Origin: a virus | Lineage: Duplodnaviria > Heunggongvirae > Uroviricota > Caudoviricetes | DNA: 64,000 bases | Reading direction: 5' to 3' (one strand) | IMG/VR virus record: IMGVR_UViG_2925891887_000001 | Part shown: positions 8,171 to 64,000 of the stretch, piece after piece | Layout: the number at the start of each line of letters is the position of its first letter | Position numbering within the stretch: position 1 is the stretch's first letter | The notes under the pieces: generated by a model | Databases searched by the model: none | What the model saw: only the letters and a program-made list of their open reading frames with translations | What the model was told of the DNA's origin: nothing | Position numbers and translations under genes: made by a program

Positions 8171-8584
8171 ATGGCAAGAGGTATGTATGTCTTATGCGAA
8201 ATTGAAGGTGTGCTGGCAAATACCAGCCATCGTAAATCTGTATCTGACTCGGATGCAGGCCAATTCATTGCCGGTGATGAACTCATTTTCCCCACCAGCC
8301 GTATGTTGCGTGGTTTTGCTCGCTCAGGGGCTGAAGTGGTGCTTATCAGTAGCCGCTCTGAAACTCTTGAAGCGCCCACTAAACGATGGCTGAAAGATTT
8401 TGGTGTTGATTACGACTGGCTTCACCTCGTACCGAATAGCACTAGTTATGAGAAGCATATTAAGCGCACATTAGCGGAGCATAAAGGCGATCTGCTTATC
8501 GCTGCGCTGGTGCACGATCCTCGACTCCGTGCCGCTTTAGCTGACTCTCATCATAGACCGGTCATCTATGAGGTGAGCAAATGA
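8171..8584 (+). CDS. hypothetical protein, possibly HAD-like hydrolase fold
   Basis: ATG overlapping thyA stop; hhhCEIEGVL (HAD motif I-like with Glu for Asp), VVLISS, GDLLIAALVHD; weak. Confidence 0.3.
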   Translation: MARGMYVLCEIEGVLANTSHRKSVSDSDAGQFIAGDELIFPTSRMLRGFARSGAEVVLISSRSETLEAPTKRWLKDFGVDYDWLHLVPNSTSYEKHIKRTLAEHKGDLLIAALVHDPRLRAALADSHHRPVIYEVSK

Positions 8585-9057
8585 AGATGATAGCTGCTGT
8601 TGGCCGTAACTATGAGATCGGCATAGCGAACGAACTGCCCTGGCGTTGTTCTACCGATCTGAAGCTATTTAAGAGACTCACCAAAAACGCCACTGTCGTT
8701 ATGGGGCGTAAAACGATGGAAAGTCTCAAACGCCCTCTTCCAGAGCGTCATAACCTCGTTTTGACGCGCTCTCATGGCTTTGTACCAAATGGATTCTACC
8801 CTGCTGGTGTGGATGATGTGTTGCGATTACCAGAGCCAGTGTGGGTGATTGGCGGGGAACAAATTTACTCGCTATTCATGCCGCATGTTGAAGAGATTTG
8901 GCTCTCCCACATCGGCGTTGATGTGCCAAACGCCGATGCATTCTTCCCGGCAAGCATGATGCGTAATTTAGGCTTTGTGCCTGTTGAAACAGCTTATACC
9001 CAACGAGCCAGCGAGGAAGAGCCTGGCTTTTCGCAGATCGTATACAGAAGGTCGTAA
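8581..9057 (+). CDS. folA: dihydrofolate reductase
   Basis: 158 aa; MIAAVGRNxxIG, LPW, VVMGRKTxESLxRPLPxR, VIGGxQIY motifs as in E. coli FolA. Confidence 0.85.
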   Translation: MKMIAAVGRNYEIGIANELPWRCSTDLKLFKRLTKNATVVMGRKTMESLKRPLPERHNLVLTRSHGFVPNGFYPAGVDDVLRLPEPVWVIGGEQIYSLFMPHVEEIWLSHIGVDVPNADAFFPASMMRNLGFVPVETAYTQRASEEEPGFSQIVYRRS

Positions 9058-19441: not shown

Positions 19442-19568
19442 GGTGATGCTGCCAACTTACTGATTTAGTGTATGATGGTGTTTTTGAGGTGCTCCAGTGG
19501 CTTCTGTTTCTATCAGCTGTCCCTCCTGTTCAGCTACTGACGGGGTGGTGCGTAACGGCAAAAGCACC
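19442..19568 (+). mobile_element. IS1 fragment (left terminal inverted repeat through insA codon 24 only)
   Basis: Identical to IS1 positions 1-127 and to the reverse complement of the complete IS1 at 54445-55212; identity stops abruptly inside insA. Confidence 0.9.
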
Positions 19569-19577
19569 ACCTTTTTA

Positions 19578-20678
19578 TCACACTGCGCGGAATGCGATTT
19601 CGCCAGGTATTACTTCACCTTGCCAATACATTTGGGCAGCAACGCGATCTGCGAGGTCACGATAAATAGCCGTAAATTCACTATCTGGACGACTAATAAC
19701 GGTTGGTGTTCCGTTATCCAGATCTTCACGAAGAGAGATATGAAGTGGCATTTGGCCTAACAACTGCGTGTTGTATTTCTCGGCCAGTTTCTGTGCGCCA
19801 CCGGTGCCAAAAATTGGCTCGTGATGACCGCAGTTACTGCAAATATGCACACTCATGTTTTCAACGATACCCAGTACCGGCACTTCGACTTTTTCGAACA
19901 TCACAATGCCTTTCTTCGCATCGATCAGCGCGATGTCTTGCGGCGTAGTTACCACAACCGCACCAGTTACAGGAATGTTCTGCGCCAGCGTCAATTGAAT
20001 ATCACCAGTGCCCGGTGGCATATCGAGAACGAGATAGTCCAGATCAGGCCACAGTGTTTCCTGCAACATCTGCATCAGCGCCTTGCTGGCCATCGGTCCA
20101 CGCCACACCATTGCATTGTCGTCGGTGACCAGATAACCAATAGAGTTGGTTGCCAGGCCATGAGACATGATAGGTGCCATGTGAGTACCGTCCGGTGAGG
20201 TTGGACGTTGGTTTTCCGCGCCCAGCATGGTTGGAATTGATGGACCATAGATATCGGCATCCAAAATACCAACTTTCGCACCTTCAGCAGCCAACGCCAG
20301 TGCCAGGTTTACCGCCGTGGAGGATTTACCCACGCCGCCCTTGCCCGAGCTGACGGCGATAATGTTCTTAACGCCATTAATGCCTGGTTGGTTTTTGACG
20401 CGCTTAAGCGTGGCAATGTTGTACGACAGCTTCCAGTCAATAGCCTTTGCGCCAGTGATACGGAGCAGATCACCACTACATTGCTCTTTCAGGTCTTCAA
20501 AAGGCTTATTCCACACGAAAGGCATGATTAGTTCGACATGCAGTGTGTCATCCATCAACGCAACATGGTGTAACGCTTTAAGCGTAGTCAGGTTGTGTTT
20601 CAGGGTTGGGTGCTGAAAATTAGCCAGCGTACCGGCTACCATTGCTCTCAGGGCATCCGGCGATTTGGACTCGCTCAT
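19578..20678 (-). CDS. apbC: Fe-S cluster carrier ATPase Mrp/ApbC (E. coli chromosomal gene)
   Basis: 366-aa ORF with deviant Walker [12 protein letters not shown], CxxC pair (ICSNCGHH) and near-identity to E. coli Mrp as I recall it. Confidence 0.9.
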
Positions 20679-20835
20679 CCCGTCTCCTTTATTTTAATTT
20701 GCGCAATTGTCGCCTTGTAGTGTACTCCAGCTACGACATTTAATCATTTATGAGAAATGCTGTTATCACATGGCAGACATAAGGCCATTTTGTTACTATC
20801 AAGCCCCTTTTCACTACAAAGAAGTAATGCCTACT

Positions 20836-22869
20836 ATGACCCAAGTCGCGAAGAAAATTCTGGTGACGTGCGCGCTGCCGTACGCTAACGGCTCAATCCA
20901 CCTCGGCCATATGCTGGAGCACATCCAGGCTGATGTCTGGGTTCGTTACCAGCGAATGCGCGGCCACGAGGTTAATTTCATCTGTGCCGACGATGCCCAC
21001 GGTACGCCGATCATGCTGAAAGCACAGCAGCTTGGTATCACACCGGAGCAGATGATTGGCGAAATGAGTCAGGAACACCAGACTGATTTCGCAGGCTTTA
21101 ACATCAGCTATGACAACTATCACTCGACGCACAGCGAAGAGAACCGTCAGTTGTCTGAGCTTATCTATACTCGCCTGAAAGAGAACGGTTTTATTAAAAA
21201 CCGTACTATCTCTCAGTTGTACGACCCGGAAAAAGGCATGTTCCTGCCGGATCGTTTTGTGAAAGGCACCTGCCCGAAATGTAAATCCCCGGATCAATAC
21301 GGCGATAACTGCGAAGTCTGCGGCGCGACCTACAGCCCGACTGAATTGATCGAGCCGAAATCGGTGGTTTCTGGTGCTACCCCGGTAATGCGTGATTCTG
21401 AACACTTCTTCTTTGATCTGCCCTCTTTCAGCGAAATGTTGCAGGCATGGACCCGCAGCGGTGCGTTGCAGGAGCAGGTGGCAAATAAAATGCAGGAGTG
21501 GTTTGAATCCGGCCTGCAACAGTGGGATATCTCCCGCGACGCGCCATACTTTGGTTTTGAAATTCCGAACGCGCCGGGCAAATATTTCTACGTCTGGCTG
21601 GACGCACCGATTGGCTACATGGGTTCTTTCAAGAATCTGTGCGACAAGCGCGGCGACAGCGTAAGCTTCGATGAATACTGGAAGAAAGACTCCACCGCCG
21701 AGCTGTACCACTTCATCGGTAAAGATATCGTTTACTTCCACAGCCTGTTCTGGCCTGCCATGCTGGAAGGCAGCAACTTCCGCAAGCCGACCAACCTGTT
21801 TGTTCATGGCTATGTGACGGTGAACGGCGCGAAGATGTCCAAGTCTCGCGGCACCTTTATTAAAGCCAGCACCTGGCTGAATCATTTTGACGCTGACAGC
21901 CTGCGTTACTACTACACTGCGAAACTCTCTTCGCGCATTGATGATATCGATCTCAACCTGGAGGATTTCGTTCAGCGCGTGAATGCCGATATCGTGAACA
22001 AAGTGGTTAACCTGGCGTCCCGTAACGCTGGCTTTATCAATAAGCGTTTTGACGGTGTGCTGGCAAGCGAGCTGGCTGACCCGCAGTTGTACAAAACCTT
22101 CACTGATGCCGCTGAAGTGATTGGTGAAGCGTGGGAAAGCCGCGAATTTGGTAAAGCTATCCGTGAAATCATGGCACTGGCTGACCTGGCTAACCGCTAT
22201 GTCGACGAGCAGGCTCCTTGGGTAGTCGCAAAACAGGAAGGTCGCGATGCTGACCTGCAGGCGATTTGCTCAATGGGCATCAACCTGTTCCGCGTGCTGA
22301 TGACTTACCTGAAACCGGTACTGCCGAAACTGACAGAACGTGCGGAAGCATTCCTGAATACGGAACTGACCTGGGATGGCATCCAGCAACCGCTGCTGGG
22401 CCATAAAGTGAATCCGTTCAAAGCACTGTATAACCGTATCGACATGAAACAGGTGGAAGCATTGGTGGAAGCGTCTAAAGAAGAAGTGAAAGCTACTGCC
22501 GCGCCAGTTACTGGCCCGCTGGCAGACGACCCGATTCAGGAAACCATCACCTTTGACGACTTTGCCAAAGTTGACCTGCGCGTGGCACTGATCGAAAACG
22601 CAGAGTTTGTTGAAGGTTCTGACAAACTGCTGCGCCTGACGCTGGATCTCGGCGGTGAAAAACGCAATGTCTTCTCAGGCATCCGTTCTGCTTATCCAGA
22701 CCCACAGGCACTGATTGGTCGTCACACCATTATGGTGGCTAACCTGGCTCCGCGTAAGATGCGCTTCGGCATCTCCGAAGGTATGGTGATGGCTGCTGGC
22801 CCCGGCGGGAAAGATATCTTCCTGTTAAGCCCGGATGCTGGTGCTAAACCTGGCCACCAGGTTAAGTAA
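20836..22869 (+). CDS. metG: methionyl-tRNA synthetase (E. coli chromosomal gene)
   Basis: 677 aa from [26 protein letters not shown]; HIGH-type motif, KMSKS, zinc knuckle CPKC...CEVCG; essentially identical to E. coli MetG. Confidence 0.95.
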
Positions 22870-22889
22870 TTAAGCAACCTCTGTTCGCA

Positions 22890-49686: not shown

Positions 49687-52600
49687 ATGTCACAAAACGT
49701 AGAGTTTATCCTGTCGCTGGAAGACAAACAGTTTACAGCGTCAATCGATCGTGCGGGGAAACTGCTTACTCGATTTGGTGAGCAGGTAACAAAGCCTGCT
49801 CAAAAAATCCAAACCTTTGAACGCTCTTTGGGTTCGGTCGCCCGTATCATTGGCGTTCTGGAAAGCAAGCTCGATTCTACGGCAGATAAACTACAGGATG
49901 TAGCTGCCGGTTTTGAGCTTGCTTCAGATGCTACGCGTAAAATGCGTGGCAACATCACCAGCCTCAATTCTGGTCTTAAAGCCCTGATTGAGCGCGTCGA
50001 TACGACAACTTCTTCAGTAGATAAACTCACCGCGTCATTACGTAAAGTGCAATCAGAGCTAAATGATTTCTCTGATTGGGCGACCTATGCAAGCAAAAGC
50101 GCAAGCCGCTTTGGTACGGAGGTCAAAGAAGCCTCTGCGTCCGTGAGTGGCATGAATACGCGCCTTAATACCACGACGAAGCGACTCAGTAATTGGGGTG
50201 TCTCAACGAGTCAGGCTGCCGAGGGACTGAAAAAGGTTCGTGAGCAGATGGACGAAGTTATCGGACGTCAGCAACTGATTAGCAAGCCGGTACGCGTTCG
50301 TACATCTGGAGGTAGCGATGGTGGCAGCGGGCGGCGTAGCGGCTCTGGCCATAGCGGTAAAAGTAACGAAGGAGGTATGTTCTCTGGCCTTCGTGGCAAC
50401 ATTTTCCTGCTTGGCGAGATCGGAGATGCAGCCAGAACGGTTACTGACATCATGTTTGGGTGGCAGAAGCCTATTGTTGAAGCTGCGGCCGAAATGGAAC
50501 GTATGCGGGTGATGCTTCGAGGGTTGAATAAGGAGAAGTCCAACCCGGGCCAGGCTGCCGCTGATGATATGAAGTACATCGTAGACATGGCTCAAAATGC
50601 GCCGTTCGCGATGCAGGCGTTAACAGACTCCTTCGTGAAGTTTCGTTCTGCTGGCTTAGATCCAACCGATGGTTCTCTGAAGGCGCTGGTGGACTCCGTT
50701 GCTCGTTTTGGTGGTGATAGTGAGCTGTTGAAACGTGCGGCTGTGGCCGTTCAGCAGATGTCCGGTAAGGGCGTTGTGTCAATGGAAGAGCTACGTCAGC
50801 AATTAGGTGAAGCCGTTCCTAACGCGATGCAGGCAATGGCAGACGCCGCAGGCATCACTATGGGGGAACTGACTAAAGCCGTTGCCAGCGGTACGGTTGA
50901 GGCAAAACAGGCGTTGTCTCTGATGTTTGTTGGTCTGCGTGCGGAGAATGAGAACGCAGCGAAAGACATGATGCAAACCTACACAGGTGCGCTGGCGCAA
51001 CTTCAGACGTCATTCACGTTATTTGCTGATCGGGTTGGTCAGGCCGGATATCTGGATTCTCTATCGAAGGGGATGAAAGAACTGGCTTCAATCATGAATA
51101 GCGCCGAAGGGATTTCGTTTGCCAATTCTTTAGGTTCGGGGTTAACAACGGCAATCGATGGGTTGCGTCAGCTTGCTCAATGGTTAGCAAAGAACCAAGA
51201 GCTGGTAATTAATCTCGGTAAGGTCGTGGCCGCGATGGTTGCGTTCAAACTGATGCGAGCAGGGATCATGGGGGTAGTTGGCGCTGGGAGCCAGATGGTT
51301 AGCACCTTTGCCACGATGGCGACCGCCATACAGACTCCATTTAACCTCGGCGCTACAGCAGTAACTCGATTCAATCGTGCGGCACGTATGGGGCTGGCTC
51401 CGATCCCCTCTCTTATTTTCGCCATCCGTGGGGCGATTACGGGGCTTAAAGGCGCTTTTGCTGGATTAACGGCGTTCATTGCAGCAAACCCTATAGGGGC
51501 AGCATTTACAGTTGCCACAGTAGCTGTTGCTGGCCTAATCACGTACATGACCATGCTCCGCAGCGAAACTTCAAAGGTCGTTGACGAGATTAGGAAAATA
51601 CCAGAGGCGATGACGGCGGCCAAACGTGCACAGATGGCGGAGTATAAAGCGCGTCTTGAGCAACAAATCACGCAAAAGGAACAAGAGTTAAAATCTGGCG
51701 AAAAGGTGGTTTATGGGCCGGGTATGGCCGGAACTACAGTAAAGATTAATCAGGATGAACGTAAGCGTATAGAAAATGAGCTAAATGACCTTCGTGAGAA
51801 ACGCGATAAAACTACTGGGGCAATTGAACGCGGAGACACTGCTGTAGCCAAACGTCTTGCAAAAGATGCGGCAGAATCACAGATAGAGAAAATACGGGAA
51901 GAGAATAGAGACTTTGCGGCAACATTCGCTAAAGCTCGTCAAGAGGCTCTGGATAAGATCCAGAAAATCAATGATGACGGTTCACTTTCAGATGACGAAA
52001 AGAACAAGCTATTGGCACCGTTACGTGAAACGGTAAACAAAAGCTATCTGGAGCCTGCGCAAAAACTGGTTGATTCACTTTCTTCTCGTAAGAATGCGAC
52101 CGAGAAGCAAATTGCGACTCTTAATGATCAGCTTGAAAAAGCCAAAAAGGATGGAAATACCGAGCAGATCCAGAAACTGCAAGGCAGTATTCGTGGTTAT
52201 CAGGAGCATTTGGAAGCCGTTGCTCAGGAGCTGACTCAGGCAGAGTTCGAGAGAGATAACGCGGCCAAAACTGGTAAGGGCGTAATGTCAAACCAGGGGA
52301 CTGTTCTTGGGTTAGGTACAACTGATAAAGCTGCTCAGAAGGCGCTGGCGCAATATATGCGAAACCAGATGGATTCTGCGACTTATCAGCGTACTTTGCC
52401 TGACGGCACTCCGATGATGGACTTCGAAGGTAAGCCGATTATTGGGCCTAAACAACTCAAGACGCAGCTTAATTTGCAGAAAGCATCCAGCGCCAGCTCT
52501 CTGGAGAAAATGAGCGATGAAGAGCGTGCCGCAGCCATTGCTGCACTGACTAAAGCTCGTGAACAGGATGCCGCAGCCGCCGAGAAAGCAGCCCAACGAT

Positions 52601-54261
52601 CAGCTAACGCCTCGCAGCGTGCGGCCAAGAAGGAACAGGCAGCGCAACAGAAACTGGCAGCCGGATACCAGAAGGCTCTGGACAAAGCCGATCAGCTTAT
52701 GGGGCAAATGGGTGAAAGCTCTAAGGCTACGGTATCGTTTGATCAGTCTCTTCGCGATACAACGAAATCGCTGACAGATTTGGCTAATGCGGTTCCTAAC
52801 GAGTTCATCACTCAAGAGATGATCGACAAGGCGAAAAAACGTCTTGAAGACCTCAAAAATGCGACACCTGAATATCGCGAGATGTTTAATCGCCGCAATG
52901 TTGAGCAGATGATCTCCACCTGGGCACCGGAGGCGGATTCCATTATTAGTGCTGGCTATACGCCGTCTCGCGAAGAGAAAGTTGCTGATTTCGAAGACAC
53001 CTACAACCGCAATCTCAAAGCGTTGATAGAACTTCGTGATAAGGCGTCTGATCCTAAAGTTGTGGCGCTTTATACAAAGAAAATCAATCAACTGATTGCT
53101 GCTGGCAATACCGCGCTTATTAAAGAGACGGGGACTGCGACGCAGAAGTTGGCACTGGAATACGAAAACCTGGCAGAGCAGATCGAAAGCACCTGGACTG
53201 ATTTGTTTAGTGGCTTAACTGATGTCCTGACTGATTTCGTTATTAACGGGAAGATGAGCTTCTCCAGCCTATCTCAGTCCATTTTGAAAGATATCACCAA
53301 TATGGTCGTGAAGTCGCAAATCACGCTGCCTCTAATGAACATGTTGGGGATGGGAACCACCGCAGCTGGTAGTTCACAGAGTGGCAATTTGCTCACTGGA
53401 GTTGCTTCTGCCGTTGCCAATCAAGGTGTACGAATGGGCAACACTGTTAATGGCGACAAGTCGGTAGGAGAAGCCACGAAGGAGACGTCCAGTTCGGTAA
53501 CTGGATTGGGGCAAACAACACAGCAGACCACCAGCGCAATTGGCACAGCAACAAATGCGATTGGTAGCTGGGTATCGGGGCTATTTGATAGCACCGAAGC
53601 CAAAGATGCTGAGACAAAAGCAGTGAAGGACTCCATCTTCTCGATGCAGAACCTCAGCTCTGTTACCGGCGCTCTGTCTGCCGCGTTTGCAATGCTTGGA
53701 GCTAATGCTTCCGGCTCTGGTAATAAGTGGTTGAATTTCGGCGCGACAGTTGCATCTGGTTTGGTTTCAGTATGGGCTGGTGGTGGATTCGATGGATTGA
53801 TGTCCGGTTCTTCTGGCTCAACTTCCGGGTTCAACAATCTGACCAGTTCTGCTGCCGATGGCACGAATGGTATTCCTGCAATTCCGAAGTTTGCAAATGG
53901 TGGCATATTCGGAAAAGACGGCGTGATCCCGCTCCGGGCATACCAGAAAGGCGGTATCGCCAACTCACCTCAATTGGCGTTGTTTGGGGAAGGCGATATG
54001 AATGAGGCGTATGTTCCATTGCCTGATGGCCGAACAATCCCTGTAACGCTCAGTACCGATGGTATGAGTGGAGGCGGAAATGTTCTTTCTCCTGTATCAA
54101 TTGAGATCAACGTCCATAGTGACGGTAGCACGACAGAATCCGGCGATACAGAAAGCATATGGAACAATGCCGCTCAACGGATGAAAGCAATCGCGCTTGA
54201 GACTATCGCTCAAGAGAAACGCCCTGGCGGATCACTCAACCCAAACACTCAACGTAACTAA
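49687..54261 (+). CDS. tail tape measure protein
   Basis: About 1525 aa, coiled-coil rich with hydrophobic segments; canonical position. Confidence 0.9.
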   Translation: MSQNVEFILSLEDKQFTASIDRAGKLLTRFGEQVTKPAQKIQTFERSLGSVARIIGVLESKLDSTADKLQDVAAGFELASDATRKMRGNITSLNSGLKALIERVDTTTSSVDKLTASLRKVQSELNDFSDWATYASKSASRFGTEVKEASASVSGMNTRLNTTTKRLSNWGVSTSQAAEGLKKVREQMDEVIGRQQLISKPVRVRTSGGSDGGSGRRSGSGHSGKSNEGGMFSGLRGNIFLLGEIGDAARTVTDIMFGWQKPIVEAAAEMERMRVMLRGLNKEKSNPGQAAADDMKYIVDMAQNAPFAMQALTDSFVKFRSAGLDPTDGSLKALVDSVARFGGDSELLKRAAVAVQQMSGKGVVSMEELRQQLGEAVPNAMQAMADAAGITMGELTKAVASGTVEAKQALSLMFVGLRAENENAAKDMMQTYTGALAQLQTSFTLFADRVGQAGYLDSLSKGMKELASIMNSAEGISFANSLGSGLTTAIDGLRQLAQWLAKNQELVINLGKVVAAMVAFKLMRAGIMGVVGAGSQMVSTFATMATAIQTPFNLGATAVTRFNRAARMGLAPIPSLIFAIRGAITGLKGAFAGLTAFIAANPIGAAFTVATVAVAGLITYMTMLRSETSKVVDEIRKIPEAMTAAKRAQMAEYKARLEQQITQKEQELKSGEKVVYGPGMAGTTVKINQDERKRIENELNDLREKRDKTTGAIERGDTAVAKRLAKDAAESQIEKIREENRDFAATFAKARQEALDKIQKINDDGSLSDDEKNKLLAPLRETVNKSYLEPAQKLVDSLSSRKNATEKQIATLNDQLEKAKKDGNTEQIQKLQGSIRGYQEHLEAVAQELTQAEFERDNAAKTGKGVMSNQGTVLGLGTTDKAAQKALAQYMRNQMDSATYQRTLPDGTPMMDFEGKPIIGPKQLKTQLNLQKASSASSLEKMSDEERAAAIAALTKAREQDAAAAEKAAQRSANASQRAAKKEQAAQQKLAAGYQKALDKADQLMGQMGESSKATVSFDQSLRDTTKSLTDLANAVPNEFITQEMIDKAKKRLEDLKNATPEYREMFNRRNVEQMISTWAPEADSIISAGYTPSREEKVADFEDTYNRNLKALIELRDKASDPKVVALYTKKINQLIAAGNTALIKETGTATQKLALEYENLAEQIESTWTDLFSGLTDVLTDFVINGKMSFSSLSQSILKDITNMVVKSQITLPLMNMLGMGTTAAGSSQSGNLLTGVASAVANQGVRMGNTVNGDKSVGEATKETSSSVTGLGQTTQQTTSAIGTATNAIGSWVSGLFDSTEAKDAETKAVKDSIFSMQNLSSVTGALSAAFAMLGANASGSGNKWLNFGATVASGLVSVWAGGGFDGLMSGSSGSTSGFNNLTSSAADGTNGIPAIPKFANGGIFGKDGVIPLRAYQKGGIANSPQLALFGEGDMNEAYVPLPDGRTIPVTLSTDGMSGGGNVLSPVSIEINVHSDGSTTESGDTESIWNNAAQRMKAIALETIAQEKRPGGSLNPNTQRN

Positions 54262-54459
54262 CTATCGACTGCCCCGACCGGGGCAGTCTCACAAGGATGT
54301 GAGATGGAAAGACAAACGTTTAATTGGTATCCAGATTACGAATCTGAAAAGAGCGTAAAACCGAATGTAACGGTACTTAATTTTGGTGATGACTACGAGC
54401 AGCGACAGGCTCAAGGTCTTAATCGTATTAAAGAAGAATGGTCGGGTAATGACTCCAAC

Positions 54460-54963
54460 TTATTGATAGTGTTTTATGTTCAGATAATGCCCGATGACTT
54501 TGTCATGCAGCTCCACCGATTTTGAGAACGACAGCGACTTCCGTCCCAGCCGTGCCAGGTGCTGCCTCAGATTCAGGTTATGCCGCTCAATTCGCTGCGT
54601 ATATCGCTTGCTGATTACGTGCAGCTTTCCCTTCAGGCGGGATTCATACAGCGGCCAGCCATCCGTCATCCATATCACCACGTCAAAGGGTGACAGCAGG
54701 CTCATAAGACGCCCCAGCGTCGCCATAGTGCGTTCACCGAATACGTGCGCAACAACCGTCTTCCGGAGCCTGTCATACGCGTAAAACAGCCAGCGCTGGC
54801 GCGATTTAGCCCCGACATAGCCCCACTGTTCGTCCATTTCCGCGCAGACGATGACGTCACTGCCCGGCTGTATGCGCGAGGTTACCGACTGCGGCCTGAG
54901 TTTTTTAAGTGACGTAAAATCGTGTTGAGGCCAACGCCCATAATGCGGGCAGTTGCCCGGCAT
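54460..54963 (-). CDS. insB: IS1 InsB reading frame (transposase made as InsAB' by frameshift)
   Basis: ORF in -1 frame overlapping insA 3' end; matches IS1 insB. Confidence 0.85.
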
Positions 54964-55157
54964 CCAACGCCATTCATGGCCATATCAATGATTTTCTGGT
55001 GCGTACCGGGTTGAGAAGCGGTGTAAGTGAACTGCAGTTGCCATGTTTTACGGCAGTGAGAGCAGAGATAGCGCTGATGTCCGGCGGTGCTTTTGCCGTT
55101 ACGCACCACCCCGTCAGTAGCTGAACAGGAGGGACAGCTGATAGAAACAGAAGCCAC
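54882..55157 (-). CDS. insA: IS1 InsA
   Basis: [43 protein letters not shown]... matches IS1 InsA. Confidence 0.9.
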
Positions 55158-55498
55158 TGGAGCACCTCAAAAACACCATCATACACTAAATCAGTAAGTT
55201 GGCAGCATCACCGAATGGTCGTTAACCTTTACCAGATCATACAACGAAATTAATGCAATCGATGACTTCCTGACTGAGCGAGCAGGCGTTGAGTCGTTCT
55301 ATTGGGTTAATCCAAGAGGAAAACGGATTGTAGTTGTATGTGACAGTCATACGGTCAAGCGATATCAGGGGTACTGTGTCTTAACTGCTACATTCAGACA
55401 AGTATTTGAGGCTTAAGTATCTGGATAAGTAAGTACTAATTTACTATCATTGTGGCGCTGACAGGATGTTAGCGCCTACTTATTTCAAGGATGAAACA

Positions 55499-56197
55499 AT
55501 GGGAATTAAAGCTGATATTCAGAGCTTATCTCCCTCTGCACTCATTGAGTTGTTCGTACTGGATATGTCGAACACAACTTCAGGGGGGAAGTTATTCTTC
55601 CACGCCGGAACAAACGAACTGATGCAACCTGTCGTCTGGCAAGGAGTGACATACGAGCCGTGGCCAATCAAAGCATCAGGCTTTGACAAAACTGGCCAGG
55701 GAACGTTGCCACGTCCAAAAATTCAGGTATCGAACTTTGCCGGAACCGTCTCTGCGGAAGTTCAGGCGAACGACGATCTTGTTGGCTGCCGCATTATTCG
55801 CAAGATGACGCTGGCTCGCTTCCTCGATGCCGTTAATTTTAAAGACGGCAACCCAACAGCAGATCCAAACCAACATTTCCCGGATGAAATGTGGTTTATC
55901 GAACAGAAAACGCTCGAAACTCATCAGGTTGTCGAGTTTGAGTTGTCCAGTGTGTTCGATTTGATGGGGGTGCAACTGCCGTATCGTCAGATCATTAAAA
56001 ACACCTGCCCGTGGAAATACCGAGGGCCAGAATGCGGCTATACCGGTCCATATTTCGACAAAAATAACCAGCAGACGTCTATGTCTGGTGCTGATTACTG
56101 CACAAAACGTTATGACGCCTGTAATGCGCGTCGGAATTATTTTGCCAACGGAGTGATCCATTTTGGCGGGTTTATTGGAGCTACGCGATATGGGTAA
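55499..56197 (+). CDS. minor tail protein gpL-like
   Basis: WQGVTYEPWPIKASGFD, ARFLDAVNF, C-terminal cysteine cluster (CPWKYRGPECGY, CTKRYDAC) as in lambda L; SD AAGGA. Confidence 0.8.
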   Translation: MGIKADIQSLSPSALIELFVLDMSNTTSGGKLFFHAGTNELMQPVVWQGVTYEPWPIKASGFDKTGQGTLPRPKIQVSNFAGTVSAEVQANDDLVGCRIIRKMTLARFLDAVNFKDGNPTADPNQHFPDEMWFIEQKTLETHQVVEFELSSVFDLMGVQLPYRQIIKNTCPWKYRGPECGYTGPYFDKNNQQTSMSGADYCTKRYDACNARRNYFANGVIHFGGFIGATRYG

Positions 56198-56987
56198 TAA
56201 AGCAATCCCTGAGCTTGGCTCTGATGTTATGCAGCAAATCTATCTCTGCGCCATAAATCGCTACCCTAATGAAGCGTGTGGCTTTCTGGTGAGAACTAAT
56301 GGCGACAAATATCGCTTTATGGAAGCGCGAAATGTTTCGGAGAACCCGCAGAACACTTTTGTAATGCACGTTGACGACATTATAGCGGCAGAGGATGCAG
56401 GTGACGTAATCGCAATCTGGCATTCACATACTGATGAATCAGCAGAAGCATCTGATGCCGATCGTGCAGGCTGTGAAGCGACGGAAGTTCCGTGGATGAT
56501 TCTGGCTATTCGCAAGAATGTTGAGGGAGATGCCCCTTTCCATTTTAGCGAGATGAATGTGATCACACCTGATGGTTTCGAAATGCCATACCTGGGTAGA
56601 CCGTATGTATTTGGCGTATTCGATTGCTGGATGTTGTGTCGGGACTATTTGAAGCGTGAGTTTAACGTCGAGCTTAACCCGAACGCACACCTGCATATTC
56701 CATCGTGGTACACCGGCGATAACGACATTCTCGACCAGAACTACCGAAACGAAGGGTTGGTACGGCTTGCGCCTGGAACAGAGCCTCAACGTGGGGACGT
56801 CTTCTTTATTCAATACGGGAAAATGCCAGATCACTGCGCGGTTTATATCGGCGATGGAATGATTCTTCATCACCAGATCGACCGTCTTAGTTGTCGTGCT
56901 TATTACGGCGGAATGTATCAGAAACATACGACGCATCACTTGCGTCACAGAGACTTGCTCAAGGGAGATGAGACGTGTCTGAGTTAG
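56190..56987 (+). CDS. tail tip protein gpK-like (MPN/JAMM plus NlpC/P60 domains)
   Basis: JAMM-like IWHSHTD...D motif and NlpC/P60-like Cys/His (FDCWMLCRDY ... HH). Confidence 0.7.
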   Translation: MGNKAIPELGSDVMQQIYLCAINRYPNEACGFLVRTNGDKYRFMEARNVSENPQNTFVMHVDDIIAAEDAGDVIAIWHSHTDESAEASDADRAGCEATEVPWMILAIRKNVEGDAPFHFSEMNVITPDGFEMPYLGRPYVFGVFDCWMLCRDYLKREFNVELNPNAHLHIPSWYTGDNDILDQNYRNEGLVRLAPGTEPQRGDVFFIQYGKMPDHCAVYIGDGMILHHQIDRLSCRAYYGGMYQKHTTHHLRHRDLLKGDETCLS

Positions 56988-57568
56988 TTCATGTGCAGCT
57001 TGGCGGACCTATGGCTAAACATTTTGGTCGCCACTGGCATCTAAAGGTGCGCAATACAAAACAGGCTCTGGATTTAATTGAAGCCAACAAGCCTGGGTTT
57101 AAAGCATGGATGAAGCGCAATATCAAAACCTATGACAGTTACCACATCCAGATCACCAATAAACAGGGCCACAAGTGGTCTGTTGACGAAAGTGAATATC
57201 AGATGATGGGGCAGTCTGACAACATTGCCAAAATCCGCATTACACCTGTTCCGCGAGGAAGCGGTGGATCTGCTTTTGGGTGGTTTCAGACGGTAGTAGG
57301 GGCCGCTTTGTTGGTTGTATCGGCGGTAGTGATGCCTGCTTTAGCACCTCTCGGTTTGTCACTGATGATGGGCGGCATATCACAAATCATATCGCCGCAA
57401 GCCACTAACGAAAGTGTGAGACAGGCAGATAACTCGAACTCTTATTATTTCGACGGCCCTCAAAATACAGAAAACCAGGGCAACCCAGTACAACTTATCT
57501 ATGGCGAGGAAATTCTGGTTGGCTCACAGGTTGTGAGTTCTTCAATCACGATTGACCAGCTAATGTAA
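56975..57568 (+). CDS. tail assembly protein gpI-like
   Basis: GTG start; hydrophobic central segment and C-terminal LIYGEEILVGSQVV typical of lambda I-type proteins. Confidence 0.65.
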   Translation: MSELVHVQLGGPMAKHFGRHWHLKVRNTKQALDLIEANKPGFKAWMKRNIKTYDSYHIQITNKQGHKWSVDESEYQMMGQSDNIAKIRITPVPRGSGGSAFGWFQTVVGAALLVVSAVVMPALAPLGLSLMMGGISQIISPQATNESVRQADNSNSYYFDGPQNTENQGNPVQLIYGEEILVGSQVVSSSITIDQLM

Positions 57569-62406: not shown

Positions 62407-64000
62407 ATGTGGTACAGGGAAGGTACTATCACATTTACACAGGGCAGCAATACTCTGGTTGGGGCAGGGACAGCCTGGAACGTAACAGCTAATGGTGTGT
62501 TGCCGGGGATGATCGTCATTGGCCCCGACAATAAGCTGTATGAGATCAAGCGCGTAACCAGTGATACGAACATTGTTCTCTCAGAACCTTATACCGGCGA
62601 AACTCAGTCTGAAGTTCCGTGCCGAATCATTACGACCTATGAAGGCGACTTAACACAGTTTAGCGCGCGCTTTACTGCGCTAATGTCGCGTATGTCGGCT
62701 GATTCCAAGTCCATACGCAGTTGGTTGACTGCGCTGGATGAGGTGACAATCGAGCGTGAAGACGGTACAGAAGTGACCGTTAAGCCGCTAATGCAGATCG
62801 TCAACGAGCACAACGAAAACGTTGAGTGGTATAAAAATAACACTGACGCGATTGATGCTGCTGGCGACAAAGCTCGTGAGGCGGCGGCCAGTGCTGCCGC
62901 AGCAGCAAAAAGCGCCAATGCCGCTGGAGAAAAAGCCTCTCAAGCGTCTCAAAGTGCATCCGCTGCGGCATCCTCACAAAGTGCCGCAAGTGCGAGTGCA
63001 ACTGCTGCGAAAAAATCTGAAACGAATGCTGCAGCGTCACAAAAATCTGCAGCCACTTCTGCATCCACCGCGACCACGAAGGCGTCAGAAGCTGCCACCT
63101 CAGCCCGGGATGCGGCGGCCTCAAAAGAGGCAGCGAAATCATCAGAAACGAGCGCAGCCTCGAGCGCCAGTAATGCCGCTTCCTCGGCAACGGCGGCAGG
63201 AAATTCCGCGAAGGCGGCAAAAACGTCCGAGACGAACGCCAGGTCTTCTGAAACGGCAGCGGGACAGAGCGCCTCGGCTGCGGCAGGCTCAAAAACAGCG
63301 GCTGCGTCGTCTGCCAGTGCCGCGTCAACAAGTGCCGGGCAGGCCTCAGCCAGTGCCACCGCCGCCGGAAAATCGGCAGAAAGTGCCGCATCGTCTGCTT
63401 CAACTGCCACAACGAAGGCTGGCCAAGCCACTGAACAGGCCAGCGCAGCAGCGAGGTCTGCTTCCGCAGCGAAGACATCCGAAACGAACGCGAAAGCGTC
63501 GGAAACCCGTGCAGAATCCTCAAAAACGGCAGCCGCATCGTCCGCCAGTTCGGCGGCGTCATCGGCATCATCGGCGTCTGCTTCAAAAGATGAGGCGACC
63601 AGACAGGCGTCAGCAGCGAAGGGCAGCGCCACGACGGCATCCACGAAAGCAACAGAGGCGGCAGGCAGTGCGACGGCAGCATCTCAGAGCAAAACTGCTG
63701 CTGAATCCGCTGCGACCCGTGCGGAAGCTGCTGCTGATCGTGCTGAAGAGATTGCCGGTGCAGTTGCGATGGAAGACGCAAGCCTTACAACTAAAGGTGT
63801 TGTGAAACTTAGCAGTGCTGTCGACAGCACCAGTGAATCGCTGGCCGCAACGCCAAAAGCAGTTAAAGCAGCCAATGACAATGCGAATAGCAGGGTGCCA
63901 TCTAACCGAAAAGTTAACGGTAAAGCACTGACTGCGGATATCAAATTAACGCCGAAAGATATTGGTACTTTAAATTCAGTAACGATGTCTTTCTCTGGCG
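62407..64000 (+). CDS. side tail fibre protein, lambda Stf-like (3' end beyond window)
   Basis: SD AGGAG; long Ala/Ser/Thr-rich collagen-like segment nearly colinear with lambda Stf as I recall it (KTSETNARSSETAA..., ATPKAVK); frame open to window end. Confidence 0.85.
   Translation, partial: MWYREGTITFTQGSNTLVGAGTAWNVTANGVLPGMIVIGPDNKLYEIKRVTSDTNIVLSEPYTGETQSEVPCRIITTYEGDLTQFSARFTALMSRMSADSKSIRSWLTALDEVTIEREDGTEVTVKPLMQIVNEHNENVEWYKNNTDAIDAAGDKAREAAASAAAAAKSANAAGEKASQASQSASAAASSQSAASASATAAKKSETNAAASQKSAATSASTATTKASEAATSARDAAASKEAAKSSETSAASSASNAASSATAAGNSAKAAKTSETNARSSETAAGQSASAAAGSKTAAASSASAASTSAGQASASATAAGKSAESAASSASTATTKAGQATEQASAAARSASAAKTSETNAKASETRAESSKTAAASSASSAASSASSASASKDEATRQASAAKGSATTASTKATEAAGSATAASQSKTAAESAATRAEAAADRAEEIAGAVAMEDASLTTKGVVKLSSAVDSTSESLAATPKAVKAANDNANSRVPSNRKVNGKALTADIKLTPKDIGTLNSVTMSFSG

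Follow-up and report, generated by a model that had tools for sequence, protein, structure and literature searches.

The stretch of DNA analysed here, a 64,000-nucleotide window, carries a complete copy of the insertion sequence IS1 within a gene for a gpM-type minor tail protein, M (Table 1). The window is the reverse complement, at 100% identity, of positions 41974-105973 of NZ_CP195468.1, the 109,442-bp circular plasmid p22AR0322A of Escherichia coli 22AR0322, a human groin screen isolate from New Zealand (assembly GCF_051611295.1). IS1 lies on the minus strand, is exactly 768 bp long and is inserted 141 nt (47 codons) past the start of M. That M is disrupted is already known from the annotation of the public RefSeq record, in which PGAP shows an IS1A-family transposase between two pseudogene fragments called 'phage tail protein'.

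Table 1 Features of the interrupted M gene and of the second IS1 segment, in window coordinates
Feature	Position	Strand	Description
gpM-type gene, 5' part	54304..54444	+	Codons 1-47; PGAP pseudogene 'phage tail protein, missing C-terminus'
Left target-site duplication copy	54436..54444		GAATGGTCG; codons 45-47 of M
Complete IS1, IS1A type	54445..55212	-	IRR at left end (54445...), IRL at right end (...55212)
insB frame	54460..54963	-	167-aa ORF; PF03400 DDE_Tnp_IS1 2.3e-78, far above gathering score
insA	54882..55157	-	91 aa; transposition repressor and DNA-binding module; PF03811 1.3e-21, PF12759 4.7e-31
Right target-site duplication copy	55213..55221		GAATGGTCG; single copy at CP056788.1 empty site
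gpM-type gene, 3' part	55222..55416	+	Codons 48-111 and stop; PGAP pseudogene 'phage tail protein, missing N-terminus'
IS1 remnant (IRL end and start of insA)	19442..19568	+	127 bp, 100% identical to the IRL end of the full copy

The IS1 element and its insertion site

The element in M has the ends of an IS1 and the coding capacity to match. Its left end opens with GGTAATGACTCCAACTTATTGAT (IRR) and its right end closes with the reverse complement of GGTGATGCTGCCAACTTACTGAT (IRL), and the terminal inverted repeats that begin in this way are imperfect, as expected of the IS1 family. The layout of the family is also present, with insA, encoding a zinc ribbon and an HTH, followed by an overlapping insB frame that contains the DDE domain. 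The frameshift motif TTAAAAAAC (A6C) is located in the insA/insB overlap at IS1 position 305, and the conceptual 232-aa InsAB' is open. The insB frame would be expressed only as the InsAB' fusion, through a -1 frameshift at this motif. Both an A6C frameshift and a target duplication of 8 or 9 bp are characteristic of IS1 (PMC12428005).

IS1A of E. coli K-12 is nearly identical to the M-inserted copy. The two have in common the length of 768 bp, the imperfect inverted repeats, insA, insB, the A6C site and the 9-bp target duplication, and their differences are limited to 2 nt (766/768 identical), at IS1 positions 262 and 444. The InsA protein is the same as that of K-12, and S130R is the sole difference in InsAB'. 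PGAP labels the element 'IS1-like element IS1A family transposase, programmed frameshift' and assigns it no pseudogene flag. In K-12, IS1A and IS1E are reported to be behind nearly all IS1 transposition (PMC12428005). From the intact ORFs and the near-identity to the active K-12 IS1A type, we infer that the copy in M is transposition-competent. An earlier note on this DNA had described a complete 768-bp IS1 in minus orientation with insA and insB intact, and this description holds, as do all the coordinates that it gave.

The insertion site retains the record of how the element arrived. IS1 is flanked exactly by a 9-bp direct repeat, GAATGGTCG, which has just two occurrences in the 64-kb window on both strands, and the identity of the flanks stops at 9 bp; the probability that a 9-mer would match by chance at one given position is approximately 4e-6. 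The relative plasmid pRHBSTW-00180_3 (CP056788.1) preserves the empty site, with one GAATGGTCG and no IS at exactly the same position. Once the IS and one repeat copy are removed, the restored M is identical to that of CP056788.1 at 336 of 336 nt. Furthermore, for window positions 52500-57500 the top matches among plasmids and phages cover 4,224 of 5,001 bp and so fall 777 bp (768 + 9) short. The exact ends, the 9-bp target duplication and the empty site in relatives together identify the IS1 in M as a genuine transposition product, and the insertion is marked as very recent by the lack of any substitution in the two halves of M. The position and exact length of the direct repeat in the earlier note are borne out, as is its placement of the insertion after codon 47 of a gpM-like gene. 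It had also considered that the IS1 ends or the repeat might be miscalled, and on this point the junctions prove base-perfect against the CP056788.1 empty site. The 59-nt target region has a GC content of 35.6%, compared with 46.9% for the window. IS1 is reported to favour AT-rich targets.

A second IS1 segment, the 127-bp remnant, is present elsewhere in the window (Table 1). It is real, and its orientation is the reverse of that of the full copy, as had been noted earlier. The remnant directly abuts chromosomal-type apbC (mrp; approximately 19578-20678), with metG at approximately 20836-22869, in a region spanning 19442-22870, and its junction with apbC-metG is common to many relatives, including pECOH89-type plasmids. 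The presence of apbC in such elements has also been remarked on previously (PMC12429562). The arrangement is probably an old scar of the IS1-associated capture of host housekeeping genes, and it is unrelated to the insertion event in M. The remnant is ruled out as the donor of the M insertion, because it is shared by many relatives and cannot transpose, and an inversion between the two IS1 pieces is ruled out by a gene order and orientation that match those of relatives.

The M gene and the predicted effect of the insertion

The restored M, in which the two parts of the gene are joined without the element and the second repeat copy, encodes a 111-aa protein that can be assigned by both profile and position. 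It matches PF05939 Phage_min_tail over profile positions 1-108 of 108 (5e-35, 120.6 bits against a cut-off of 39) and the 'Tail tip protein M' of phage lambda (PDB 8iyk_M, E = 9.7e-10) over residues 4-107. M lies between a tape measure ORF of 1531 aa on its upstream side and, on its downstream side, PF05100 (L), Prok-JAB and NlpC/P60 domains (K), a 197-aa I-like ORF and J, and this gene order is that of lambda. Lambda gpM resembles the protein in length (109 aa compared with 111 aa here), in its full-length alignment to the Pfam model and the lambda chain, and in the position of its gene. On the other hand, the sequence relationship to lambda gpM is distant, as the E value above indicates, and the gene on the plasmid is split by IS1.

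The reading frame of M does not survive the insertion as a functional unit. The 5' part reads on into IS1 and reaches a stop at 54523-54525 after 26 IS1-encoded residues, giving a 73-aa product. It had been stated earlier that the M frame resumes after the element. This is formally correct, since 777 nt is a multiple of 3, but IS1 adds nine in-frame stops to the frame and there is no start downstream. Specifically, the last in-frame stop (55195) is followed by 72 codons that include no ATG, GTG or TTG from which the 3' part could restart, and the C-terminal 64 residues of M should therefore not be made separately. Translation is likely to yield a 73-aa fragment missing over half of a small single-domain protein, and the interrupted gene, M::IS1, is likely to be a null allele.

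Genetic and structural work on lambda indicates what the loss of such a protein would entail. In the lambda tail, gpM is the distal tail protein, and a ring of six copies fastens the gpL-gpJ tip to the gpV tube (PMC10721106), and amber-mutant genetics established lambda M as essential (PMC10695390, Table 1). Across p22AR0322A, Salmonella phage SSU5 and Klebsiella pJN2-26 the protein is 111 aa long alike, and among the three pN is 0.09-0.13, compared with a saturated pS of 0.87-0.92. These values indicate that M is under strong purifying selection in the SSU5-type family. The earlier note had left open an escape in which M is dispensable here, and the strength of purifying selection on the gene argues against it. 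Because of this selection within the family and the essentiality of lambda M, the protein is probably needed for the tail in SSU5-type elements. The prediction of a tail defect for a genome carrying M::IS1, drawn from lambda and from sequence conservation, is a reasonable one.

Effects beyond M may be expected as well. IS1 insertions are classically polar in both orientations. An insertion in the late operon would be expected to reduce transcription of the downstream L, K, I, J and tail fibre genes, and M::IS1 is probably polar on these tail genes. A consensus scan for promoters and terminators at the junctions of IS1 and M gave no significant signal, with two promoter-like sites against 1.9 expected. 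The M-L intergenic region (55417-55498) contains a hairpin with a 10-bp stem and a T-rich tail at 55454-55476, in counts no higher than in shuffled sequence. A weak promoter-like match precedes this hairpin at 55422-55450; it is a match to consensus only, and its counts are also no higher than shuffled.

The phage-plasmid p22AR0322A

The genome that carries the insertion is a phage-plasmid kept as a plasmid rather than a free phage. The annotation of p22AR0322A includes a RepB initiator and two ParB-family partition genes together with a complete siphovirus module of terminase, portal, capsid, tape measure, M, L, K, I, J and tail fibre genes. Among the accessory genes are metG-apbC and dfrA51. 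In the tail region, identity is 95.9-99.5% to many E. coli plasmids and to the 'phages' CMS-2020a, Cyrano and PhiR41_1, and 80.1% to Salmonella phage SSU5. In its size of approximately 109 kb, its RepB and its ParB-family genes, p22AR0322A resembles the SSU5/pECOH89/Cyrano (pLF82)-type phage-plasmids of Enterobacteriaceae, and it has both metG-apbC and the 127-bp IS1 remnant in common with its pECOH89-type relatives. It differs from the SSU5-type phage-plasmids in being the only member seen here with an IS1 in M.

Cyrano illustrates the capacity of the family when M is uninterrupted. It is 98.4% identical to p22AR0322A over the M region and its M is intact. After ciprofloxacin treatment, Cyrano yields siphovirus particles with a tail of approximately 259 nm (PMC9928086). 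Because Cyrano forms long-tailed, infectious virions, the SSU5-type family with intact M can be regarded as a working phage.

Several further features of the plasmid lie outside the tail module. PGAP annotates dfrA51 at window positions 8581-9057 (record 96917-97393) as a trimethoprim-resistant dihydrofolate reductase gene; it is located beside thymidylate synthase in a nucleotide-metabolism module, and DfrA51 has been described as the product of a phage-plasmid-borne gene (PMC12217456). Outside the window, dnaE (DNA polymerase III alpha; NZ_CP195468.1 9729-14041) is annotated in two pieces with an HNH endonuclease gene between them, and a gene for a LAGLIDADG homing endonuclease is found near the split dnaE (NZ_CP195468.1 4412-6751). 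The split dnaE and its neighbouring HNH and LAGLIDADG genes suggest that the replication module harbours mobile elements of the intron or intein type.

Taken as a whole, the evidence makes it highly probable that an IS1A-type transposition into M of this SSU5/pECOH89-type phage-plasmid has produced a tail-less, plasmid-only element. The donor would most likely have been among the host cell's own IS1 copies; E. coli genomes with any IS1 have a median of 11 matching places. Transposition would have been driven by the InsAB' DDE transposase, made through the -1 frameshift at the A6C motif, and a staggered cleavage of the target in an AT-rich stretch of M would have given rise to the 9-bp duplication. 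With M cut off after residue 47 and extended by the 26 IS1-encoded residues, the distal-tail ring protein would be lost. The replication and partition genes are intact, and p22AR0322A would still be inherited as a plasmid. Upon induction, the cell would be expected to assemble heads with packaged DNA and no functional tails, and transfer by infection would be lost. The sequence directly shows the element with its ends and duplication, the empty site in relatives, the broken frame and the rarity of the insertion, whereas the loss of tails, the polarity, the identity of the donor and the lack of selection are inferred. The insertion itself has the appearance of an accident, neutral or slightly harmful, and not of an adaptation.

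The maintenance of the element as a plasmid also bears on how such a lesion could persist. Since plasmid inheritance is independent of the tail, a tail-dead copy needs no subpopulation in which to be carried. The earlier note had raised such a subpopulation as one possibility, the plasmid context being invisible in the sequence alone, but it is unneeded for a phage-plasmid maintained as a plasmid in a clinical E. coli. The copy number of elements of this kind ranges from approximately one per cell (PMC12429562) to 5.5 per cell (PMC9928086), and cells may be mixed for intact and disrupted copies of M.

In the remainder of the structural module, no other genuine pseudogene was found in the annotation of p22AR0322A. 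A candidate second lesion in the tail module was considered and rejected. The gene in question encodes the tail fibre and is located downstream of J (window 62872-64000 and beyond; NZ_CP195468.1 39269-43102). PGAP gives it a pseudogene flag, 'missing N-terminus', and its frame begins just after J and stays open for 1,441 codons. The corresponding frame in pERB3f3 has 1,394 codons, with 98.3-99.8% identity where the two align, and over the first 2.4 kb the identity to relatives is 99.8%. The pseudogene flag on the tail fibre appears to be an effect of annotation and not a lesion.

Rarity of the insertion and competing explanations

A survey of public collections places the occupied site in a single complete genome. 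A 574-bp query of the restored site was searched against 5,426 complete E. coli genomes and matched 219 of them, once each; these include one 33-nt CRISPR spacer, leaving 218 elements with the M region. NZ_CP195468.1 alone among the 5,426 genomes contains the occupied site at 80% or more of its length, and it alone has a split M match among the 60 matches listed, the other 59 listed each being a single unbroken match. PLSDB yielded no occupied site, with 392 records covering at least 80% of the 5-kb region and a maximum of approximately 85%, and none was found in the phage collection. The 73-aa read-through ORF from M into IS1 is absent from a collection of 15 billion proteins, in which at least 1,000 contigs encode the intact 111-aa M protein. 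Nor does the 30-nt left junction occur in the GTDB representative genomes, and the strain name 22AR0322 was not found in the literature.

This distribution is what might also be seen if the insertion were present in just part of the population, or had arisen during laboratory passage, with most natural copies retaining an intact M and a functional phage. The restored M is unchanged relative to its intact relative, and the event may be as recent as the sequenced culture; the occupied site is known from one complete genome, its read-through ORF and left junction being absent from the other collections; and related elements can be multicopy, at the higher of the copy numbers cited above. However, IS1 is present in the consensus of the closed 109,442-bp circle, so that most, if not all, of the sequenced copies carried it. 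Low-copy plasmids, moreover, segregate fast into pure lines, and such sorting also counts against a lasting mixture. We regard a partial-population or laboratory origin as unlikely.

A different possibility is that the insertion was adaptive, with inactivation of the tail selected as a first step towards a pure plasmid and M possibly a recurrent target of IS elements. P1-like phage-plasmids are known to become plasmids through the loss of phage genes (PMC10879196), and the target in M is AT-rich, with the GC content given above. Public E. coli and Shigella sonnei assemblies also contain partial M proteins of 39, 45, 47, 80 and 87 aa, encoded where contigs of approximately 95-107 kb end, a pattern that a repeat in M would give. 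Two S. sonnei contigs of 107,443 bp (GCA_044600675.1 and GCA_041213585.1), on the other hand, begin inside M (positions 1-146) without an IS at that end, and the arbitrary linearisation of a circle fits them equally well; the partial proteins at contig ends could reflect either IS-induced breaks or arbitrary linearisation of circular contigs. A large survey of SSU5-group elements furthermore found that insertions of ISEc9-blaCTX-M-15 avoid the structural gene region (bioRxiv 10.1101/2025.09.12.675607), which runs counter to M as a favoured target of IS elements. Among the complete genomes matching the M query, the occupied site is present in 1 of 219. A benefit to the host is not obvious either, as induction and lysis would be unaffected by a tail defect. 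Selection for tail inactivation is thus very unlikely to explain the insertion.

A broader form of this idea views M::IS1 as a snapshot of the first step that locks an SSU5-type phage-plasmid into a plasmid-only life, the AT-rich M being hit by IS elements repeatedly in clinical lineages of E. coli and Shigella, as the partial M proteins at the ends of roughly 107-kb contigs might hint. We give this proposal a slim chance. If it is true, phage-plasmids would often be domesticated through inactivation of the tail, perhaps under selection.

The explanation of IS1 as an assembly artefact, in which a repeat was misplaced inside M, draws on the high copy number of IS1 in E. coli (the median of 11 noted above) and on repeats as a common cause of misassembly, but is practically negligible, since an assembler creates no perfect 9-bp duplication at exact full-length ends and the junctions are base-perfect when compared with the empty site.

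The preferred reading, an accidental IS1 transposition into M of an otherwise intact phage-plasmid, can be set beside the defective phage-plasmids and P1-derived plasmids described by Pfeifer and Rocha (2024, PMC10879196). The likeness lies in the loss of virion function with plasmid maintenance kept, and the decay of prophages and phage-plasmids through transposable elements has been documented (PMC10879196). The cases described there, however, have lost many phage genes and gained conjugation-related elements, whereas p22AR0322A has suffered one IS insertion, which is very recent and could in principle be reversed, and its remaining structural genes are all intact.

Gene-inactivating IS1 insertions are textbook events, and M::IS1 is an ordinary one with little import beyond isolate 22AR0322. 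The production of infectious virions by p22AR0322A is predicted to be lost. Tools that type elements by gene content would still score p22AR0322A as a complete phage, though it is probably non-infectious. The allele may also be of use in the laboratory. It is a natural, otherwise isogenic M-null allele (0 of 336 differences in M) and a possible control for tests of tail assembly and transfer in SSU5-type elements.

The CRISPR match recovered with the restored-site query deserves mention as a separate observation. A 33-nt segment of M (window 55348-55380) matches at 100% a 'CRISPR' feature on the chromosome of the bovine E. coli EC42405 (NZ_CP043414.1, 1175319-1175351). The feature is a chromosomal spacer directed at the SSU5-type phage-plasmid family.
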